NCBI GenBank assembly: GCA_045805065.1
Contig: JBJMMA010000217.1
Location: 1-36,434 of the forward strand
Direction: 5' to 3'
Length of the DNA stretch: 36,434 bases
DNA from: Bdellovibrionia bacterium
GTDB lineage: Bacteria > Bdellovibrionota > UBA1018
Shown here: positions 12,452-31,995 of the stretch, one piece after another
Layout of the letters: every line of letters starts with the position of its first letter
Position numbering within the stretch: position 1 is the stretch's first letter
The notes under the pieces: generated by a model
Database searches by the model: none
The model's input: the letters and a program-made list of their open reading frames with translations, nothing else
Told to the model about the DNA's origin: nothing
Program-made: the position numbers and the translations under genes

Positions 12452-13219
12452 ATGAGGTTTATTGTTTCACTCATGGCTTTTGCGTTGCTCACGGGATGCT
12501 CCAGCGTCTCGCCGAGCCATTCAGGCAGGCACGGCCTGTTTGATGACTTAGCCATGGGATCTAATGGACATCATGAAGCACGGGCAAGCTCAGGGCGCGC
12601 GATCGCGGTTCAGGATCTTCCTGCAAGGCCTACCGGAAATCCTGTGATCGATAAGCCGCGAAGCAAGAAAGAGCGCGCTGAGAAGGCTGCAGCTCTTGAA
12701 GCATCGCCTCAGGCCGTTGAGCTCAAGAACGCTGGCCTCCATTGGCCGTTGAATCAAGTCGAAGTAACCTCCCATTTTGGAAAACGCGGACACGAATTCC
12801 ATGAAGGTATTGATCTTCGGGCAAGTATCGGCACACCCATTTATGCGGCGCAATCGGGAACTGTGATTTACTCGGACTCAAGAATTCGCGGCTACGGTAG
12901 AATGATTGTCATCAAGCATCGCGAAGGGCTTGCAACGGTTTACGCCCACGCCTCAAAACTTTTGGTCCATAAAGGCCAGAAGGTAAAAATGGGCCAGAAG
13001 ATCGCGATCTCCGGAAAAAGTGGGCACGCGACCGGACCTCACCTTCACTTCGAAGTCAGAAGCGGCGTGATTGCGGTCAATCCTTACCAGTTTCTTCCAA
13101 AAACCAATATCGAAGTCGCTCAGGTGGCATCTCATCAAGAGAAGACTTCAAAGAAACGCCGTCATAAACATCCCCATGCGACCGTACTTGCGATGCGCTC
13201 AGGCGCCCAAAAGCGTTAG
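12452..13219 (+). CDS. M23 metallopeptidase lipoprotein (NlpD-like, no LysM seen)
   Basis: Lipobox LTGC from ATG 12452 with AAGGA SD; HEGID, YAH, TGPHLHFEVR; position after surE. Confidence 0.88.
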   Translation: MRFIVSLMAFALLTGCSSVSPSHSGRHGLFDDLAMGSNGHHEARASSGRAIAVQDLPARPTGNPVIDKPRSKKERAEKAAALEASPQAVELKNAGLHWPLNQVEVTSHFGKRGHEFHEGIDLRASIGTPIYAAQSGTVIYSDSRIRGYGRMIVIKHREGLATVYAHASKLLVHKGQKVKMGQKIAISGKSGHATGPHLHFEVRSGVIAVNPYQFLPKTNIEVAQVASHQEKTSKKRRHKHPHATVLAMRSGAQKR

Positions 13220-16200
13220 TGCGATGCCGGTACTGGTACCGCAGAGGAGCTGACGATCTTCACTGGCAAGCTGGACAGTGTTGTCTGATCTGCCATTCGA
13301 ATTGATAGTGCTCCCGTTGCGTAATACTTGCCTTGGGTAAAGAGCGGGTGCTTCAGCAGGATTGAGCTCTCGGGTGAGAATGCAAAACTTACATCAAAGC
13401 GCGGGGCTGCTCCTTTGATCTCAACTTTTCCTTTCTCTGGCGCAAAGTTGAGAATCTCAGTTGAGACAAAACTTCCGTTGCCGTTTCGGATGGTCGCGCC
13501 TTCGATCCTGACTGCGTACTTGGATCCGGCCCTTGGCACAATGAATACTTTTTCTTCATCGGTGGAGCCTGTGCCACTTCCAGCGAGCGAGCAGCGCGTA
13601 TCGGTTGGGTTTTGAGCGTCGGCGGGACACTCCATGACATAGACGTCGATATCGTTCTCTGGAGATTGTCCGGTAAGAATGCTGACGCTGATGACTTTCT
13701 CCGGATAGCTGCGCAGAATTCCCAGCGGGCTCTCAATGTACTTGGACTCGTCTTGCGCGATGGTTGCCTTGGTTTCGGCGTTCAGGCTGACCAGCTCATA
13801 GTCGCTTGCCTGGGTCTCAGGCTTTGCTGCGAATGAGCTATCCTTTAAAAGCCAGTTCACGGAGCCATTGAGCGCGGTAGTGTCGCCGCTGATTCCCTTA
13901 AGGCTAGTGTCGCCATTAACGTAATCGACTCTGAGTTTGTACTGTGACATCGGATAGCGGTATTGGCCAAAAACGTGAACATCCCAAAGGCCCGATCGCG
14001 GGTTAGTGCGAGTCACGACAAGCTCATGCAACTTCGGATTCAGAAGCGGCGCACCGGTTCCGTTTCCGAGTGTCGCATCGCAGTTATAGGCGCGCGCCTT
14101 AGTGCGATCTTCAACGGCCTTGGAAATGTTCTGTCCTTCATAAGCCATCAGTTCAACGCCGGAGCAAAATTCATTGGCAGCAACGCTACCGTTTGCATCT
14201 GTTTTGATCGGAGGGACGCTGAGGCTCATTTTCAGAACGCTCGTTCCTGGAGGAACCATCACGTAGTGACGATCCACCCCAAAGGAAGGCACCTTTTTCT
14301 GAACCTCAAGAGCTGAGCCCTGGGCCATGACTTTTTCAGGAACGCTCAAAAAGACCGGGACGATGAAGGATGCAATCGGCGAAACTTGTGCTCCCACTTT
14401 TCGATAAGCATAGACCAGAGCACCATGATCACCGGGGGGAAGCTGCGAGATCTTCTCTCGATCCAGACAAAGATTCAGGATGCTCCCTGTAAAAGCGTTG
14501 TAACTTCCGACGCCATCGACAACGCTGATGGCCACACCTTGCCCGACGACCGTGAGATCTGACACGGGGCTTGTCATGCAATCTGCGGATTCCTGAACTC
14601 CGGCTTTGAGCCAGGATTCATTGGATCCGTAGATCACCGTACGAAGCGCGAATCGGTCCGCGGTGGACTTGAGTTGCTCAGTCAGCTCTCCTGCTGATTC
14701 GCCCGCAGCATAAAGCTCAGGCAGGGAGCGTTTGATGAACACCGAGCGGTAACGAGATGGATCATTGGCGGTCAGATAAACGCCTGCGCCAAAGACAGGA
14801 GTGCCGTTCACGATCTTGGTGCCGTTATAGGAGTTGCTATTGGGTGCGTGAAAAGAAGTGACGACTTCATAATCAAGCTCCACAGGTTGATCTCCCAAGG
14901 TTACGGCCGTTGGAAGTTTTGAGTCGCGAAGAGCAAAAAGCGCTCGCCATGCTGACTTGAGATCCACCATTCCGGTACCTTGGTCGGCCCAGGTGTATTG
15001 TCCTTGAGACTTTGCGCCGGATGAATCATCCAGTCGGGTGACATCAAAAGGACGCGCGGATTCGATCAGGACTCGACGGAGGGTCAAAGCATCGGTTGTG
15101 AGTTTTTCTTGCGGTTGTGGATGGCGCTCGTTGTATTTCTTGATGGCATCCAAAAGCAGAGCATAGGAACCCGTGACCGTTGGAGCTGCCATGGATGTTC
15201 CCCAATAGACGTCCAGGCCCCCGCGAACTTCTGACGCCGTATTAAATGGGACGGAGCTCAGCTCAGTTCCTGGCGCACTCAGGTTGGGCTTGAATCCACC
15301 GTTAGCACTGGGTCCACGGCTACTGAAAAAGAGCATGAAGTCTTCGCTTGGATCAGCGAAAGAAGAATTTCCAGCTCCAGGCCACTCGTACTGCTGGCGG
15401 ATCAAGGAGCGCGTTGCTGTGGCTCCGACAGAAAGCGCAAGGCGAGCGACGGATGGGCTGCCTACGGTTTGTCTTCCCGGCCCGGAATTTCCCGCCGATA
15501 CAATGACTGCCGTGTTTCTGACTGAGACCAGGCGATTGAGGAGCGTTTCGCCAACGCCCACGCCGTCGTTGGATGCGCTCAGGGAGCCGAGTGACATGTT
15601 GATGACTTCGGCACCGCCGTTGACTGCAAGGTCTGCCACGCCAGCATTTGAGCTGCAGCCTGAGTTATTTGCGCAAACGCGAGCCATGGCGATTTGAGCT
15701 TCAGGGGCGACACCGCGAGCAAGAGTTGTTGCGAGGTCATTTGCGATCGTCTTTGATCCTGCGGCGATGCCCGAGACATGGGTGCCATGGGCGCCAGGGT
15801 CAAAGCCGACGAACGAGACCGCGCGAACGGGAATTGCTTTCGTCCCATCTTTGCTTGGCAGCTGCGCATCGCGGAAAGCAAATCCGATCTTTTCCGCAAA
15901 GACACGCATCGTATCATGACTTGCATTGAAGTCGCGAAGCGCTACTGACTTTCTGAAGTCCAGAGTCCCGGTTGAATCAAAGTAGACGCGCTCTGGAAGA
16001 GTGCCTGAAGCAGGGAAGTAAAGGACACGAAGAAGGTCATTCTTCTTTCCGTTAGCGTTCAGATCGACTGCATCCGAGAGTGAGTTCAGGCGTTCCTCAA
16101 AGATCACGCCAAATTTCGCACCCGAGGCGTTGGGAGCCAGAAGAAGCGCGCGTTCTTCGGCGTTCACCTTGATCTTTAAATTCTCCACTTTCTTGAATTC

Positions 16201-17091
16201 ATCTCCCGCAGGCATGGCAGGAACTGTGGGACTCTCGATATAATCAGCCGTGATGGATAGATCTTCTTCTGATCCGTTTGGCGATCCGTTTGGTACGGCG
16301 CTCGCCGTCAACTGGGCGCTTGGATGAATGTAGACGGTGCCATCGCCCGTGAAATCCTGGATGCGGTTGATTCTGACTTTTCCGCTGAGCTGTGAGCGGA
16401 AGGTCGGATGATTGTAGGTGATGCCGCTGTCAGCGATTCCGATCTGAACGGAAGAGCCATCGACTTTGACGCCTCCACCGATATCGGCTTCAGCCTGCTT
16501 GACGAACTCAATGGCGCCGATTCGTTCAAGGCCGCTATAAGAAGAATGCTCAGAGCGCGGATCAATGGAAAGCGCTTCGTTTTGTTCTTGAGAGAGAGCC
16601 TGAATCTCCTGGATCTCGCCTTTGTTATAGACCAGAGGCTCAACGATGATCTCGCGGTTTTTGATGCGAAGGGTTTTCAACGCACGCGTGAGCTCCGGCT
16701 CATAAGGGAGCATGATCTCAAAGTATCCCACTTCAGGAATCGAGCTTTGAGCGATTGCCCCGATGGCTTGCGTGCTCTCAAATACGTTTTCGATCTCCTG
16801 CTTGAGAATCGCCCGGCGCTCAGCCATGGGCTTTGAAGCGATGTTTTGCTGGATCTGCGCAAAGCTATCGCGGCTGAATGTTCCTTCCAGCCGATACAAG
16901 AGGCGATCTCCCACGCGCTGAACCTGGATCGGGGTCTCGTTGCTCAAAACAACGGTTCTGGATTCGCCGGCCTTATAATCCGCAATATTTAGATCCGGGC
17001 CACGAAGATCTGGAGCGTGTACGCTTGGAGACGAGCTGGAACAAGCCGTGATCAGCAATAAAACAGTAAGACTAGCTAGCTTGTGAATCAT
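13216..17091 (-). CDS. Large S8 subtilase lipoprotein (TPP II/pyrolysin-like D-H insertion)
   Basis: Triad IADSG, HGTHVSGIAAG, GTSMAAP; SAGNSG oxyanion motif; lipobox ITAC; GGGGGAG SD before ATG 17091 (alternative start 17121). Confidence 0.92.
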   Translation of the reverse strand: MIHKLASLTVLLLITACSSSSPSVHAPDLRGPDLNIADYKAGESRTVVLSNETPIQVQRVGDRLLYRLEGTFSRDSFAQIQQNIASKPMAERRAILKQEIENVFESTQAIGAIAQSSIPEVGYFEIMLPYEPELTRALKTLRIKNREIIVEPLVYNKGEIQEIQALSQEQNEALSIDPRSEHSSYSGLERIGAIEFVKQAEADIGGGVKVDGSSVQIGIADSGITYNHPTFRSQLSGKVRINRIQDFTGDGTVYIHPSAQLTASAVPNGSPNGSEEDLSITADYIESPTVPAMPAGDEFKKVENLKIKVNAEERALLLAPNASGAKFGVIFEERLNSLSDAVDLNANGKKNDLLRVLYFPASGTLPERVYFDSTGTLDFRKSVALRDFNASHDTMRVFAEKIGFAFRDAQLPSKDGTKAIPVRAVSFVGFDPGAHGTHVSGIAAGSKTIANDLATTLARGVAPEAQIAMARVCANNSGCSSNAGVADLAVNGGAEVINMSLGSLSASNDGVGVGETLLNRLVSVRNTAVIVSAGNSGPGRQTVGSPSVARLALSVGATATRSLIRQQYEWPGAGNSSFADPSEDFMLFFSSRGPSANGGFKPNLSAPGTELSSVPFNTASEVRGGLDVYWGTSMAAPTVTGSYALLLDAIKKYNERHPQPQEKLTTDALTLRRVLIESARPFDVTRLDDSSGAKSQGQYTWADQGTGMVDLKSAWRALFALRDSKLPTAVTLGDQPVELDYEVVTSFHAPNSNSYNGTKIVNGTPVFGAGVYLTANDPSRYRSVFIKRSLPELYAAGESAGELTEQLKSTADRFALRTVIYGSNESWLKAGVQESADCMTSPVSDLTVVGQGVAISVVDGVGSYNAFTGSILNLCLDREKISQLPPGDHGALVYAYRKVGAQVSPIASFIVPVFLSVPEKVMAQGSALEVQKKVPSFGVDRHYVMVPPGTSVLKMSLSVPPIKTDANGSVAANEFCSGVELMAYEGQNISKAVEDRTKARAYNCDATLGNGTGAPLLNPKLHELVVTRTNPRSGLWDVHVFGQYRYPMSQYKLRVDYVNGDTSLKGISGDTTALNGSVNWLLKDSSFAAKPETQASDYELVSLNAETKATIAQDESKYIESPLGILRSYPEKVISVSILTGQSPENDIDVYVMECPADAQNPTDTRCSLAGSGTGSTDEEKVFIVPRAGSKYAVRIEGATIRNGNGSFVSTEILNFAPEKGKVEIKGAAPRFDVSFAFSPESSILLKHPLFTQGKYYATGALSIRMADQTTLSSLPVKIVSSSAVPVPASH

Positions 17092-17130
17092 GAATCTCGC
17101 TCCCCCCGAAGCATCGTTCATATAAAATAC

Positions 17131-18270
17131 TTAGAGATAAAAAGACCCCATTAAGAAGCCTGATGTCTCGTTTTGATCCAATGCGGAGTTATACTCCCGA
17201 CCCAGCTGGGCCTGAAACTCAAAGTGTGGCCTTGGGTAAAATAAAATGCCTGGCGCAAAAGAGTGATCATGCGCCGTAGGCTCGCCCAAGTGCGAGAAAT
17301 TGTTCTGATGTTGAATGTAAAAGTGTAGCCCTTGGATCAGCTCGTAACCTAAGCGATTAAACGAGACAAATCCTGAGGCGCCGCTGTTTGTTTGACTGAT
17401 GCCATGGCGGAACTGCCAATCCCATTCCGTTAACAGATAAAAACGCTCAGTAAATCCTAGGATTCCGTAGGGGCCTGCGACTTGGCGAGATGCGCCCGTG
17501 CTATAACCTTGGAAAAAACTCAGGCCGAATTTGTATTTCTCAGCCAGATGAATGGCTCCCGTGAGAGCGAGACCTTGCTCGCTTTTGAGGTTGGTTCGCT
17601 CAGGTCTTCCAAAAACTCCGGTAACGGCTCCCGAAAAGCGCTCGCCCTGATAGCCGGCCTCTAAGTTGTAACTCTCTGCGTAAGGTCCAAAGCCCAAGCC
17701 CTGGCGAATGGAAACCGTATGATCGGGCTCATGGATTCCGTAATCCATCATGAACCGACCCAGGCGAAGAGACGTGTTCTCAAGCGCACCACTGTCAGGA
17801 CGGTACATGACATAATGCTCGCGACTGAAGAATTTGTTATCGGTCGTGGGTTTTCCGCTCAGAGTGTTTGGATTGAGTCCGCCCGTGGCAACGACGGTGA
17901 ATTGATTAACGACGGCCGAGGCGGAAAGATCAGCCTGCATGAACTGAGAATCACCAGAGCTTGCTTGCGGCGTATCTTGATAAACCTGAATTCCGCGAAC
18001 AAATGCCTGGATTTGAAACGCTTCAGGAAGGGGCGCGACGCCATACATCGGAAGTGATTCGCGCTCCTGCCCGTAGGCGCTTAAGACCGCTTGAGAAGTG
18101 GAGCGTCCGTAGGCATTCAGGATTCCGCCACCGCTTGGGCTGGAGTGACATGCGGTGCAGTTTGAGTAACCATGACGGACCATCTCAGGAAATGCATAGG
18201 CATTTGAGGTGAGTGTGCTTGCTCCTAAAAGCAAGGCGGTCATGAATGGCGTGTGGCGGAGAAAATTCAC
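17131..18270 (-). CDS. Cytochrome c-porin fusion (Cyc2-like outer-membrane beta-barrel with N-terminal CxxCH)
   Basis: Signal peptide ending AYA; FPEMVRHGYSN-CTACH-SSPSGGGILNAYGR; remainder amphipathic aromatic beta strands ending GFLMGSFYL. Confidence 0.72.
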   Translation of the reverse strand: MNFLRHTPFMTALLLGASTLTSNAYAFPEMVRHGYSNCTACHSSPSGGGILNAYGRSTSQAVLSAYGQERESLPMYGVAPLPEAFQIQAFVRGIQVYQDTPQASSGDSQFMQADLSASAVVNQFTVVATGGLNPNTLSGKPTTDNKFFSREHYVMYRPDSGALENTSLRLGRFMMDYGIHEPDHTVSIRQGLGFGPYAESYNLEAGYQGERFSGAVTGVFGRPERTNLKSEQGLALTGAIHLAEKYKFGLSFFQGYSTGASRQVAGPYGILGFTERFYLLTEWDWQFRHGISQTNSGASGFVSFNRLGYELIQGLHFYIQHQNNFSHLGEPTAHDHSFAPGILFYPRPHFEFQAQLGREYNSALDQNETSGFLMGSFYL

Positions 18271-18893
18271 TTCTTTTTGGTTCCTTGCGCTGGTGCTGAT
18301 GCGGGTGAGGACTCTGCTGCTTTTGCCTGAACATCCACGTCGATATCGATATGGTCAGCGACTTTCACTCCCATGTAGGTCGGAATATCGATCTTATAAT
18401 CAGTGATCTGCGTACCAAATTCGACATGGCCTGTGGCAGCGCCTGCATTGCTTATGATCGTAGCTGTCCCTTTGACGGGTTTCGTCTCACCATGAAGCGT
18501 GAGATCGCCTTCCATCGGCAACTTTTCCGCGGAAAACCCGCTCGGAGTGAAATCGCGTGGAAGTGTGAGTTTAGTGATCTTGAATTTCGCTGTCGGGTTC
18601 TTGTCGGTTTGAAGGTATTTTTCCTTCATATGGCGATCACGAAGATCGATTCCCGTGTTGAGGGAATTCTCATCAAAGGTGAGCTCGCCCGAGACTTCTT
18701 TGCCGCTGATCTGAATCTGTCCTTGAGGAGCCGATCCCTTGCCACGGATTTTGATCGCGCTTGGTTTTCCAATCGCAAGAAATCCAACGTTTCCGCCTGT
18801 CACTTGATAGCTTTGAGCGTTTGCAGCGAGCGCACTTGCGGCTGCAAACGAGCTGAGTACTGCAAACATGGTAGCAAAGTGATTTCTTTTCAT
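18267..18893 (-). CDS. YceI-family lipid/polyisoprenoid-binding periplasmic protein
   Basis: Signal peptide; SLNTGIDLRDRHM...YL.....P.A.F and GDLTLHG.TKPV signatures; AAGGAG SD. Confidence 0.92.
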   Translation of the reverse strand: MKRNHFATMFAVLSSFAAASALAANAQSYQVTGGNVGFLAIGKPSAIKIRGKGSAPQGQIQISGKEVSGELTFDENSLNTGIDLRDRHMKEKYLQTDKNPTAKFKITKLTLPRDFTPSGFSAEKLPMEGDLTLHGETKPVKGTATIISNAGAATGHVEFGTQITDYKIDIPTYMGVKVADHIDIDVDVQAKAAESSPASAPAQGTKKK

Positions 18894-18910
18894 AAGCGAT
18901 GAGCTCCTTT

Positions 18911-19579
18911 TCAGTCTTTAGCCCCGTTTAAAATCCAGGTTCGGATGACGTCGATTTGTTCGGGAGTCAGAGGATCCACTGCGGGTTTGCCGGGCTTTGC
19001 AATCGGAGGCATGCGGCCTTTGCCGGTTTTAGTGATGTCCTGATAGAGTTCGCTCTTTTCAGGATCATAAGGAACGACCCAGCCTTGCGCTCCTGTGACA
19101 ATCGATTGATCAAAAATATTGATGTCATCATGGGACTCGCCCGGACCATGGCATCTCAGGCAGCGTGTTTCGAGAATAGCAGCGCGGATGCTTTGAAAGG
19201 TAGGCGCAAGCGCTGGAACAGGCTCTGCGGCTTCTCCTTGATTGAGCGGCATGCCGGCATCAATCCAGGTTTTCAGAATTTTTGATTCAGATTTTGAGAG
19301 AGGACCGCTTGGCGGCAAGTCCTTGCGAACAAGCGCGCGATCCTGAATTTCAGAGATGCGTTTTCTGATGGCGTCGTAAGAATTGAACTCGTTAGCGTGG
19401 CAGCGAAGGCAACGGGAGCTGATCACGTTCTGCATGACCATTCGGTACGAAACAGTTTTGACCGAGACGAGTGCCGCTTCATCGCCTGAATCTTTCTCGT
19501 GATAGAACTGGCAGCTCACTCCAAGAAAAAGCAAAACAACGAGGCTGGCTAGATGATTCGACCGTATCAAGTTGACCAC
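18911..19579 (-). CDS. Dihaem c-type cytochrome lipoprotein (two small Planctomycete-type cytochrome domains)
   Basis: Lipobox GVSC; CLRCH at 19397-19411 and 19148-19162; each domain ends PP...L...(E/Q)...(L/I)..WI..G. Confidence 0.85.
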   Translation of the reverse strand: MVNLIRSNHLASLVVLLFLGVSCQFYHEKDSGDEAALVSVKTVSYRMVMQNVISSRCLRCHANEFNSYDAIRKRISEIQDRALVRKDLPPSGPLSKSESKILKTWIDAGMPLNQGEAAEPVPALAPTFQSIRAAILETRCLRCHGPGESHDDINIFDQSIVTGAQGWVVPYDPEKSELYQDITKTGKGRMPPIAKPGKPAVDPLTPEQIDVIRTWILNGAKD

Positions 19580-19604: not shown

Positions 19605-19646
19605 AAAAAAACAAAGAAGGTCCGAACCTTTTTAGGTCCAGACCTT
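19605..19646 (-). terminator. Intrinsic terminator of the BPL_N-like gene
   Basis: Minus-strand 13-bp stem AAGGTCTGGACCT-AAAA-AGGTTCGGACCTT (two G-U pairs that form only on this strand) followed by CTTTGTTTTTTT. Confidence 0.85.
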
Positions 19647-19685
19647 CCTTTGCTCGAATCTGCTAAGTTTTCTTCAGTTTATGGA

Positions 19686-20570
19686 TTACATCGCAGCCAT
19701 GGGTTGCTGATGAAGTGCCGCATTAAGCAGGGTGTATGCGGTGTCTTGGTGCGTTCCATCCGTTGAACTCACGCCCAGAGCAGACAGGGTGGCTTGGTTT
19801 GCAGTCGGGTGAACTCCCGAAAGAATGACAAAGCCTTTACCTGACCAAAGTTCTGTAATTGCTGGATTACCATCAGGATACTTGGCAATCACGCCACCCG
19901 GGGTACTCGGGGTTACTGGGCCACCGTACCAAAGAATATCCTGAGTAGAACCATCGGCGAAGGACAGCAGGGTCATCGCGATGTCCGTGCCTTGATTTTC
20001 AAGATAGTAATAGTCAAGTTCTGGTCCGTTCACAATGCCCAGGCCATAGCTCACGTCTCCACCTGGAGCGGGGGCGGGGGCTTGCGCGATGAAGGATCCT
20101 GCACAGAATCCAATGTAGCTTACGCCACGGCTCTGAACGGCTTCGCGCAGATTGGCGTGCGTTTGGGAAGTCAGGCTGTCGGCTTCAGTGCCGCCGGATC
20201 CACCCGGAAAAATCAAAAGACCAAATTGGGAAATCTGATCGACGCTCATCGCATTGAGCTGAGATGAGGTAACGACCTGATAGCTCATGCCATGGGAGTC
20301 CATGATGCTTTCGAGATTGGCGACTTCAGTGCCCCAGGTTCCGCTTCCCGCGAAAAGCATTGCGTCTGTGCTCCACGTTCTGGACGGAGCTGAAGGGGTG
20401 GATGGCGCTGAAGGGCTTGATGGGGATGAAGGATCCTGAACAAGTCCCGTACCAGGGGAATTGGAGCCGCTGCTCGATACATCAGAGCTTGCGCTGTTTC
20501 CGTCGCAGGAACTCAGGGTAAACAAAGCTGCGACCACAGCAGCAGGGTAAGCGAAACGTAGTTTTTTCAT
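19686..20570 (-). CDS. Lipoprotein with stand-alone BPL_N-like (class I glutamine amidotransferase-like) domain
   Basis: Lipobox LSSC, Ser/Pro linker, LLIFPGG, YIGFCAGSF, GKG.VILSGVHP; AGGAG SD. Confidence 0.75.
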   Translation of the reverse strand: MKKLRFAYPAAVVAALFTLSSCDGNSASSDVSSSGSNSPGTGLVQDPSSPSSPSAPSTPSAPSRTWSTDAMLFAGSGTWGTEVANLESIMDSHGMSYQVVTSSQLNAMSVDQISQFGLLIFPGGSGGTEADSLTSQTHANLREAVQSRGVSYIGFCAGSFIAQAPAPAPGGDVSYGLGIVNGPELDYYYLENQGTDIAMTLLSFADGSTQDILWYGGPVTPSTPGGVIAKYPDGNPAITELWSGKGFVILSGVHPTANQATLSALGVSSTDGTHQDTAYTLLNAALHQQPMAAM

Positions 20571-30768: not shown

Positions 30769-31956
30769 TTAGACGCCGATGATTCCACCGCAGAATGGAC
30801 CCGAGCAGCTCGTAGGGCTCGGGGATGGGGTCACCGTGGTCGTAGGCGTAGGAGTTGCCGAAGAACCCGTAGGTGAAGCCGTTGGACTTGGCGAGGCCGA
30901 AGGATCGCTACTAGGCGAATCCGATGGAGTTGGGCTTACCGTAGGATCAACCGTAGGCGAAGCTGACGGTTCTACACTAGGCGAAGCTGACGGTTCGACA
31001 CTAGGAGTAGCCGAAGGCTCAACACTTGGGGAACTCGTTGGTTCAGCACTTGGCGAAGCGGATGGGCTAGCCGAAGGACTTGCCGAAGGTGAGCTCGAAG
31101 GAGTTGGGATTGGATCGATCACAGCAACTGGGCAGAATGGAGCTGGATCAAAGGTAAAGCCGTTGCCCGTAAGTGAGATGCTGTTCCAGGCAAGGACAGA
31201 ACCTTGGATGCGGCCATTACCAGAGATCTGTGCCGTTCCGCGAGGAACGATGAACGTTCCTTGCACATTTCCGTTACCGGAGAGGTGTACGCTTGCTCCT
31301 GAGCCAGGCAACCGGAAAAGCACATTTGCTGGAGGAAGGGTTCCAGAGACTACAATGTTGCTGTTGCCGGAGAGCGAAACGTTTCCTGCAACATTGATCA
31401 GAAAGAGATCATTCGCGGTGCCATCCAGAGTCAACGTCTGTTTTCCGGAGAGCGAGACGTTGCCATTCACCTGAATGACATTCAAAGATCCATTTCCGTG
31501 AAGGGTCATGGACGAATTGATCTGTTGGATGGATCCAGTCTCAGGCAAGGATGCCAGGCTGTCGACAAAATCGAGCACGTTTTTCTCATTGCCTGTTAAG
31601 TCACGTACAACAACCGCTCCAACGCTTGCCTTACCGGAAGTGGTGACTTTGTCATTGGAAGGCGTGTAGAGATTTTCCGCGATCTTTGCGTTACCGCTCA
31701 GATGGATGCTTGAGCCACCGAGCAGAACGACGCTTCCCTTGATGGTCGCATTCCCAGAAAAGCTCACGCTCGTGTCTGAGAAGGCCACCAGGCTGGCAGA
31801 CGTTGACAAGCATTGATTCATGCCTGATCGAGCATCTGCTAGTCCCAACAAGGAGAGGTGAGAATTTGAAGAATCAGCAGGAGCTTGGCATCCTGCGGTG
31901 GTGATCGTCGTTAAAATTGCAGCGCCAGTGATGATCGAGTTTTTTGAGATACGCAT
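30769..31956 (-). CDS. Beta-solenoid lipoprotein (DUF3494 ice-binding / choice-of-anchor-A-like) with Pro/Ser/Thr tail
   Basis: Lipobox TAGC; eight S-x-x-L-SGN-like rungs; LTLDG..NDLFLINV, NVLF, QGTFIVP; AGGGAG SD before ATG 31956. Confidence 0.7.
   Translation of the reverse strand: MRISKNSIITGAAILTTITTAGCQAPADSSNSHLSLLGLADARSGMNQCLSTSASLVAFSDTSVSFSGNATIKGSVVLLGGSSIHLSGNAKIAENLYTPSNDKVTTSGKASVGAVVVRDLTGNEKNVLDFVDSLASLPETGSIQQINSSMTLHGNGSLNVIQVNGNVSLSGKQTLTLDGTANDLFLINVAGNVSLSGNSNIVVSGTLPPANVLFRLPGSGASVHLSGNGNVQGTFIVPRGTAQISGNGRIQGSVLAWNSISLTGNGFTFDPAPFCPVAVIDPIPTPSSSPSASPSASPSASPSAEPTSSPSVEPSATPSVEPSASPSVEPSASPTVDPTVSPTPSDSPSSDPSASPSPTASPTGSSATPTPTTTVTPSPSPTSCSGPFCGGIIGV
30810..31110 (-). 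repeat. 12/24-bp periodic coding repeat (SPSA, SPSVEPSA)
   Basis: AGGCGAAGCTGACGGTTC(T/G)ACACT units at 30955-30978 and 30979-31002, degenerate copies on both sides. Confidence 0.85.
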
Positions 31957-31995
31957 ATAACACACTCCCTGACCTGATTTGACTAACTGTTAATA

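Follow-up and report, generated by a model that had tools for sequence, protein, structure and literature searches.

Cyc2 is a monoheme cytochrome-porin fusion that serves outer-membrane electron transfer. Cyc2 homologs are widely taken as markers of iron oxidation, and membership has been defined by the motif AXPXFAR[Q/K][T/Y] upstream of CxxCH together with PXL four residues after CxxCH (PMC8406198). OprP/OprO-like porins are the templates reported for Cyc2, and the function of Cyc2 in non-iron-oxidizers is an open question (PMC8406198). Reported potentials run from +208 mV (PMC8406198) to −130 mV (PMC13692758). Ubiquinone-8 or polyprenyl ligands are seen in structures of YceI proteins, and the YceI protein BcnA limits envelope lipid peroxidation with the cytochrome b561 LcoA (PMC9113575). 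In Cellvibrio, Cbp2D fuses the YceI-like domain X158 with a c-type cytochrome that reduces lytic polysaccharide monooxygenase (LPMO) (PMC12542752). Here, we describe a three-gene module from a Bdellovibrionia bacterium (contig JBJMMA010000217.1; the 36,434-nt stretch analyzed is called the window) that encodes a cytochrome lipoprotein, a YceI protein, and an outer-membrane barrel with an N-terminal heme site.

The module is real and conserved and is undescribed in the sources searched; it is a variant of the cytochrome-porin kind that lies outside Cyc2 as defined. Searches of the open-access literature for Cyc2 with YceI and cytochrome, Bdellovibrio with YceI, or Cyc2 with Bdellovibrio found no description of the module, in agreement with the original prediction that no characterized system is known to have this makeup; subscription papers and supplements, such as a figshare Cyc2 alignment, could hold members. 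One preprint mentions unspecified oxidative and reductive electron transfer proteins of Bdellovibrionia and suggests, speculatively, that they take part in predation (10.1101/2022.03.26.485925). The original prediction had named three co-oriented exported genes with three CxxCH motifs, a 17-nt gap containing AAGGAG, a GTGA overlap, and a strong upstream terminator, and all of these were found again. Their positions in the window are as follows; all three module genes are on the minus strand.

17131 to 18270, minus strand: outer-membrane cytochrome-porin gene, 379 aa (assigned from sequence and predicted fold)
18145 to 18159, minus strand: CxxCH heme motif of the barrel protein, residues 38 to 42
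18267 to 18893, minus strand: YceI gene, 208 aa, secreted; Pfam YceI
18904 to 18909, minus strand: ribosome-binding site AAGGAG, inside the 17-nt gap (18894 to 18910) between the cytochrome and YceI genes
18911 to 19579, minus strand: cytochrome lipoprotein gene, 222 aa
19148 to 19162, minus strand: cytochrome heme motif 2 (CxxCH), residues 140 to 144; axial Met190
19316 to 19318, minus strand: Leu88 codon TTG, replacing the family's axial Met of heme 1
19397 to 19411, minus strand: cytochrome heme motif 1 (CxxCH), residues 57 to 61; invariant in 21 aligned sequences
19613 to 19650, minus strand: intrinsic terminator, which ends the upstream BPL_N-like lipoprotein gene and sets the module apart from it

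Conservation of the neighborhood was assessed in 79 genome loci (from the best 80 of 148 matches) with profiles that were iterated on these same loci; the genomes are kin, and the counts are not independent trials. A YceI gene lay within 1.8 kb of the barrel gene in 71 of the 79 loci and a cytochrome gene in 65; both were present in 60 and neither in 3. For the 57 loci with full flanks, the corresponding numbers were 53, 49, 46, and 1. The exact gene order of the window recurred in 40 of the 79 loci, and 11 had YceI and barrel only. The tetranucleotide GTGA serves both the YceI stop and the barrel start, and among the 61 loci in which YceI immediately precedes the barrel, 29 show this 4-nt overlap again (first-start open reading frame calls). 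Chance gene order or a simple artifact was ruled out by the conserved neighborhood, the invariant CxxCH of the barrel, and the recurrent overlap. The neighborhood survey suggested with the original prediction thus showed the three genes to be a conserved unit.

The association extends to a second barrel subfamily. Subfamily II barrels matched the subfamily I profile at 100% over 340 columns with 21% identity. Of 14 hand-picked subfamily II loci, 10 had a YceI gene nearby, 13 had a cytochrome, and 9 had both; both partners were present at each of the 6 subfamily I loci taken alongside. In a YceI tree, all 10 subfamily II partners fell on one side of a branch (Shimodaira-Hasegawa-like approximate likelihood ratio test, 96). 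This quick tree held 48 rows (alternate rows of a 64-row alignment, 15 sequences from fetched loci, and 1 ordinary YceI); long branches meet in it, and the careful search was unfinished. One genome carries both barrel-YceI pairs (L236 and L237). Because a separate YceI branch accompanies the subfamily II barrels, barrel and YceI appear to have been duplicated together. At several subfamily II loci in Bdellovibrio-type genomes (L233 to L236, L250, and L257; e.g., L257:1477-3854), the barrel gene is joined by a small outer-membrane barrel gene, with a convergent YceI gene, one or two larger cytochrome lipoproteins, and adjoining folE- and pepN-like genes.

Some loci carry additional multiheme proteins. 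In L106, L237, and L238, an extended operon encodes a tetraheme lipoprotein of 865 to 876 aa, YceI, a diheme lipoprotein, and the heme barrel, with a Porin_5 protein added in L237 and L238. In L041, a gene for a 560-aa, 21-heme cytochrome (L041:7090-8772) is convergent with the barrel gene. Two exported families with no Pfam match are repeated neighbors of the module, one (about 210 to 230 aa) at 7 of the 79 loci and the other (about 320 aa) at 5 (L052, L056, and L067 to L071).

The YceI partner is a clear family member. It matched PF04264, a family with a polyisoprenoid/quinone-binding lipocalin fold, at 81.1 bits against a cutoff of 23.7 (E = 1.4e-22), and it has the conserved RDxH motif; G51, R85, H88, and P171 are invariant. 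The YceI profile retrieved 14 YceI-type matches from the PDB, including E. coli YceI (1y0g, E = 1.3e-11) and X158 (2x32, E = 2.4e-07). In L251, the gene that immediately precedes the barrel gene encodes cytochrome and YceI in one frame, as a fusion lipoprotein (L251:3704-4870). Such fusions were found in four clusters (P0285 to P0288; 100, 74, 60, and 58% identity to the query), in which the linker keeps a remnant of the signal segment of YceI; they form one lineage and probably reflect one event. A weak search of 7,998 candidates found no YceI fusions of 392 to 2,000 aa. As for the soluble quinone or lipid shuttle of the original prediction, free solubility is not a necessity, as the fusion to an anchored cytochrome in one lineage shows. 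The genome has a second, ordinary YceI gene (G000:C229:5971-6585), adjoining a LysR-like gene and without cytochrome b561; its two matches to the cytochrome b561 family PF01292 are on contigs other than those of both YceI genes.

The barrel protein has a signal peptide (recognized by eye) that is presumably cleaved after residue 26, followed by a monoheme N-terminal domain, a barrel of about 16 strands, and a C-terminal FYL. Its CxxCH was invariant across aligned homologs (alignments of 49 and 64), and 253 of 261 homologs have an N-terminal CxxCH; seven of the other eight begin inside the barrel, and one has a long N-terminal extension. An AlphaFold2 model showed about 16 strands from residue 85 (approximate, as counted by DSSP), with a mean pLDDT (predicted local distance difference test) score of 83 and a predicted template modeling (pTM) score of 0.80; the heme domain was poorly modeled, with residues 21 to 50 below pLDDT 50. 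The closest folds were the 16-strand porins OprP (E = 1.7e-11) and OprO (E = 2.9e-10). At the sequence level, no Pfam or NCBIfam family matched the window barrel at E ≤ 0.01, and Porin_O_P weakly matched 17 of 49 family members. A PDB search found no match for the single protein and only weak heme-domain matches for the family profile. The structure prediction proposed earlier for this protein thus returned a 16-strand porin fold with a conserved N-terminal heme site. Together, these features suggest a porin with one c-type heme site, presumably occupied by covalent heme, at its periplasmic N terminus.

Further predictions for the barrel were less informative. A complex of barrel and YceI, with heme riding along, scored 0.29 against a mark of 0.32, and the controls did not fold. 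No DUF5777 barrel was matched in this genome in a search that lacked a working positive control. The window barrel departs from the family at the Asp90, Glu116, Arg151, and His376 positions; some of its closest relatives share this departure, which hints at an altered pore in this subclade.

The fold bears on whether the module moves lipids rather than electrons. In a redox-gated lipophile transporter, the heme domain would plug and gate the pore, YceI would receive or deliver quinone or lipid (for example, quinones scavenged from prey), and the cytochrome would set the redox state of the gate. The lipid-binding fold of YceI, the predatory hosts, and a linkage of barrel to YceI that is tighter than that of barrel to cytochrome are in keeping with such a role. 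However, the barrel is a general 16-strand porin: OprP was the top match in a wide structural search (Z = 23.2; root mean square deviation, 3.2; 278 residues aligned), while lipid channels such as FadL reached only Z = 12 to 13. Cytochrome-YceI fusions and multiheme additions also suit electron transfer better, and we regard gated transport as rather unlikely.

The window cytochrome has a lipobox, LGVS-C23, and a flexible linker that connects its two PSCyt1-type CxxCH...MP domains. It matched PF07635 (E = 5.6e-07) and also NF047812 (E = 2e-08, under that model's cutoff). In 74 cytochrome neighbors, the number of hemes was 1 in 35, 2 in 29, 3 in 8, and 4 in 2, and Met-Pro followed the heme motif in 118 of 125 heme domains. 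A lipobox (by a simple rule) was present in 59 of the 74, just 1 of which has Asp at +2. In E. coli, lipoproteins without Asp at +2 are sorted to the outer membrane, a rule that may not be that of this phylum; by this rule, the lipid anchor of the cytochrome would sit in the outer membrane. The periplasmic diheme carrier of the original prediction is therefore diheme in the window copy, but it is a lipoprotein rather than a free carrier, and two hemes are not required. The predicted structure has two domains with no fixed mutual orientation (pTM, 0.50). Its cluster mate P0283 keeps Met at the position of Leu88, so that either strain variation or a mistake in the assembly accounts for Leu88. 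Four DNA runs from one soil study agree with the parts of the region that they span; the Leu88 codon lies outside all of the listed pieces, and no RNA run was listed for the region. Elsewhere in the genome, a stand-alone monoheme lipoprotein of the same cytochrome family is encoded at G000:C253:9066-9485.

To relate the family to Cyc2, a Cyc2 profile was built from 56 complete motif-bearing proteins out of 80 metagenome loci. The barrel family aligned with it over 82 to 91 columns with probabilities of 75.5% and 87.3%; the barrel only gave 13.6%, and a reversed control gave 1.7%. The match covered the heme domain and the initial strands. Against the 261 barrel proteins, the Cyc2-type profile reached a best E value of 9e-06. 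The heme domains of the two families are thus remotely homologous, and common descent of the barrels is suggested by fold only. Neither PxFAR[QK][TY] nor PxL occurred in any of the 253 CxxCH-bearing homologs, although 221 keep the Pro (−10) and Arg (−6) of Cyc2 before CxxCH, and 199 have PxGGGxL. NCBIfam models also found no match on three Cyc2-motif proteins. No YceI was detected near 120 Cyc2-motif matches (80 with flanks, 40 with at least 4 kb); as a control, the same YceI profile detected the ordinary YceI of the genome at E = 9e-09. The label "Cyc2-like" in the original prediction therefore stands for architecture and remote heme-domain homology but not for the defining motif.

These comparisons bear directly on an inward, Cyc2-like uptake route. 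The barrel heme would oxidize a small dissolved reductant (Fe(II), Mn(II), or reduced humics or quinones), the cytochrome would relay electrons to the respiratory chain, and YceI would be a bound cofactor carrier or accessory; the heterotrophic host would gain an energy supplement or metal detoxification. Such uptake fits the Cyc2 architecture with its OprP-like fold, the heme-domain homology, the conserved acidic residues in the barrel, of which there are many, and the ActA-like pentaheme proteins seen by eye in the genome. In a PDB search, moreover, the cytochrome family profile placed FoxE first (5mab, E = 7.6e-12; window protein alone, E = 0.04). The whole-fold search against FoxE, from the two-domain model, gave only E = 0.9, however, and the absent Cyc2 motif, the poor barrel-only match, and the lack of YceI near Cyc2-motif genes also argue against it, as does a family that is phylum-wide in predators and not tied to iron oxidizers. 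No RuBisCO was found in the 94%-complete, 4.2-Mb genome, consistent with the original description of a heterotroph not expected to oxidize iron. Inward uptake, in both its route and its assigned role for YceI, is an unlikely explanation, and the module probably serves electron movement at the cell surface other than classic Cyc2 iron oxidation.

Conserved pore residues raise the question of metal handling. Met111, His184, and His349 are invariant in the barrel family, and the first two are invariant in both subfamilies. In a metal (copper) or gas sensing or handling system, Met111, His184, and other His residues would bind metal in the pore, and the hemes would set the oxidation state of that metal to serve resistance or uptake. 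Of the 79 loci, 7 have a nearby match to a multicopper oxidase, P-type ATPase, or RND (resistance-nodulation-division) pump, and a divergent 600-aa protein with tetratricopeptide repeat (TPR), winged-helix, and DeoR helix-turn-helix (HTH) matches, a candidate regulator of the module, is present in 12 (L101:2863-4665 and 11 more). Still, 72 loci have no such metal-related neighbor, and some of the seven matches are not copper specific, so that a copper link was rejected as a general feature. YceI is left unexplained, and a metal role is improbable.

An envelope redox relay joining YceI-bound quinone, the cytochrome, and the barrel heme, in either direction, is in our judgment likely. Within this relay, we tentatively favor an outward, quinol-fed version. 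YceI would hold an isoprenoid quinone (menaquinone in this host), and the quinol would hand electrons singly to the cytochrome, which would pass them to the barrel heme. The barrel heme could then reduce a small oxidant, either one that passes into the pore or one generated at the outer membrane; candidates are reactive oxygen or lipid peroxyl species, an oxidized metal ion, or an external quinone. The whole would resemble the b561-YceI pair LcoA-BcnA shifted to the outer membrane on a Cyc2-type chassis.

Host physiology is compatible with this outward relay. A menD gene scored above the cutoff amid open reading frames that resemble the rest of the men cluster by eye; MqnC of the futalosine pathway was not found in the genome. 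One cytochrome c synthase gene, of CcmF or CcsBA size, is present. His/Met class I hemes usually lie above menaquinone in potential, so that electrons would run downhill from quinol to cytochrome, a direction in which YceI has a part. Outward flow is favored because YceI, the most constant partner, would gain a downhill role in a menaquinone host and because BcnA-LcoA and Cbp2D offer precedents. The frequent translational coupling of YceI and barrel, the separate YceI branch, the fusions, the added multiheme parts, menD, and the cytochrome c synthase may all be read in its support.

Several observations weigh against the outward relay. No inner-membrane quinone-reducing partner recurs in the neighbors of the 79 loci (clusters inspected by eye, some scanned), and nearby YceI is absent from 4 of the 14 subfamily II loci and from the two other barrel copies in the genome. 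YceI tethered in a fusion lipoprotein cannot diffuse across the periplasm. Given the span of reported Cyc2 potentials, the potential of the barrel heme cannot be assumed. Heme 1 of the window cytochrome lacks its axial Met, and the closest characterized relatives of both heme proteins, Cyc2 and FoxE, act in Fe(II) oxidation, which would point inward.

The family is widespread in the phylum. It gave 432 matches among 6,438 candidates and, in another search, 1,362 representatives at E ≤ 0.001, and it was present in 195 of 301 Bdellovibrionota genomes, weaker subfamilies included, and in 38 of 38 genomes of one Bdellovibrionota family. Named relatives are nearly all Bdellovibrionota (Oligoflexia, Bdellovibrionales, and Bacteriovoracaceae), their hosts are predators, and members are annotated as hypothetical proteins. 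ESM Atlas returned clusters without names for the barrel, with Myxococcota and Bdellovibrionota commonest, and the module had no match in a plasmid collection. The same genome encodes a second heme barrel (L025, G000:C144:2133-3332; 41% identity) and a third, distant type (L031, G000:C145:22519-23829; profile match 96.6%; about 5 kb from men genes), neither with YceI or a cytochrome beside it.

The heme barrel family, present in the majority of genomes sampled from this predatory phylum, has a fixed quinone-binding-type partner, and the module bears on the use that YceI proteins make of carried quinone. The module may conceivably, though this is doubtful, represent a third, undescribed, phylum-wide electron route across the Gram-negative envelope, in which quinone carried by YceI takes the place of a heme wire in linking an outer-membrane cytochrome-porin with the quinone pool. 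If so, predators might exploit or recycle the quinones of prey or protect themselves against oxidants inside prey, and the Cyc2 chassis would have a non-iron branch. The published motif screen would miss this sister family; at 379 aa, the window barrel passes the FeGenie filter of at least 365 aa, and many homologs (355 to 370 aa) are near or under it. Since the cultured Bdellovibrio bacteriovorus s4 carries both barrel subfamilies, these questions are directly testable.

The operon boundaries were less sharply defined than the module itself. The terminator (19650 to 19613) has a 17-pair stem and a U-tail (−28.8 kcal/mol, z = −5.4; equaled by 0 of 200 shuffles). Its tail is only about 26 nt from the cytochrome start, and neither a clear ribosome-binding site nor a sigma-70-like consensus promoter was found in this interval. 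No significant terminator hairpin followed the barrel gene (z = −0.64), and a subtilase gene is close behind. Both operon limits are therefore putative, and cotranscription of the three genes is likewise suggested by spacing only. The 1,301-aa subtilase (13216 to 17121) has a likely lipobox and probably starts at the second Met; it adjoins the barrel only in the closest relative. In the upstream lipoprotein (19686 to 20570), a Ser/Pro-rich linker precedes a BPL_N (class I glutamine-amidotransferase-like) domain. Each of these neighbors occurred in 1 of 79 loci, and both were rejected as module parts. A further protein (30769 to 31965) has DUF7305 and ice-binding-like beta-solenoid matches.

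The module can be set against five described systems. MtrCAB, MtoAB, and PioAB (PMC8406198) also combine an outer-membrane barrel with c-type cytochromes, but theirs is a 26-strand barrel threaded by a decaheme wire, and the module, with 16 strands and one fused heme, has neither component of an MtrAB-type conduit. Because a single fused heme cannot span the membrane, any substrate has to pass into the pore or else act from the side of the periplasm. FoxE of Rhodobacter ferrooxidans SW2 (PMC10654088) is likewise a diheme His/Met cytochrome; the module cytochrome differs as a lipoprotein with one to four modular domains, and no FoxY or FoxZ was noticed beside it, with no family search made for foxY or foxZ. 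Cbp2D (X158 plus X183; PMC12542752) joins YceI-like and c-type cytochrome domains in one unit, as does the module fusion, and its X158 matches the YceI profile. Unlike the module, it is secreted, cellulose targeted, serves LPMO, and has no porin. BcnA-LcoA (PMC9113575) shares a YceI gene coinherited with a heme protein gene, an envelope site, and a proposed quinone-based redox role; its partner is an inner-membrane diheme b cytochrome, whereas the module pairs a distinct YceI subfamily with a c-type lipoprotein and an outer-membrane heme barrel. Closest in plan are Mariprofundus Cyc2PV-1, Ghiorsea Cyc2TAG1_1, and Acidithiobacillus Cyc2 (PMC8406198, PMC13692758), with a signal peptide, one N-terminal CxxCH, and a 16-strand OprP/OprO-like barrel. 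The barrel family, known here from sequence, has A[FY]PEM[VI]RHGY and PxGGGxL in place of AxPxFAR[QK][TY] and PxL, barrel sequences that cannot be aligned with those of Cyc2, a constant YceI partner, and predatory heterotrophic hosts. It shares the plan of Cyc2 while falling outside Cyc2 membership as defined, consistent with a large sister family.

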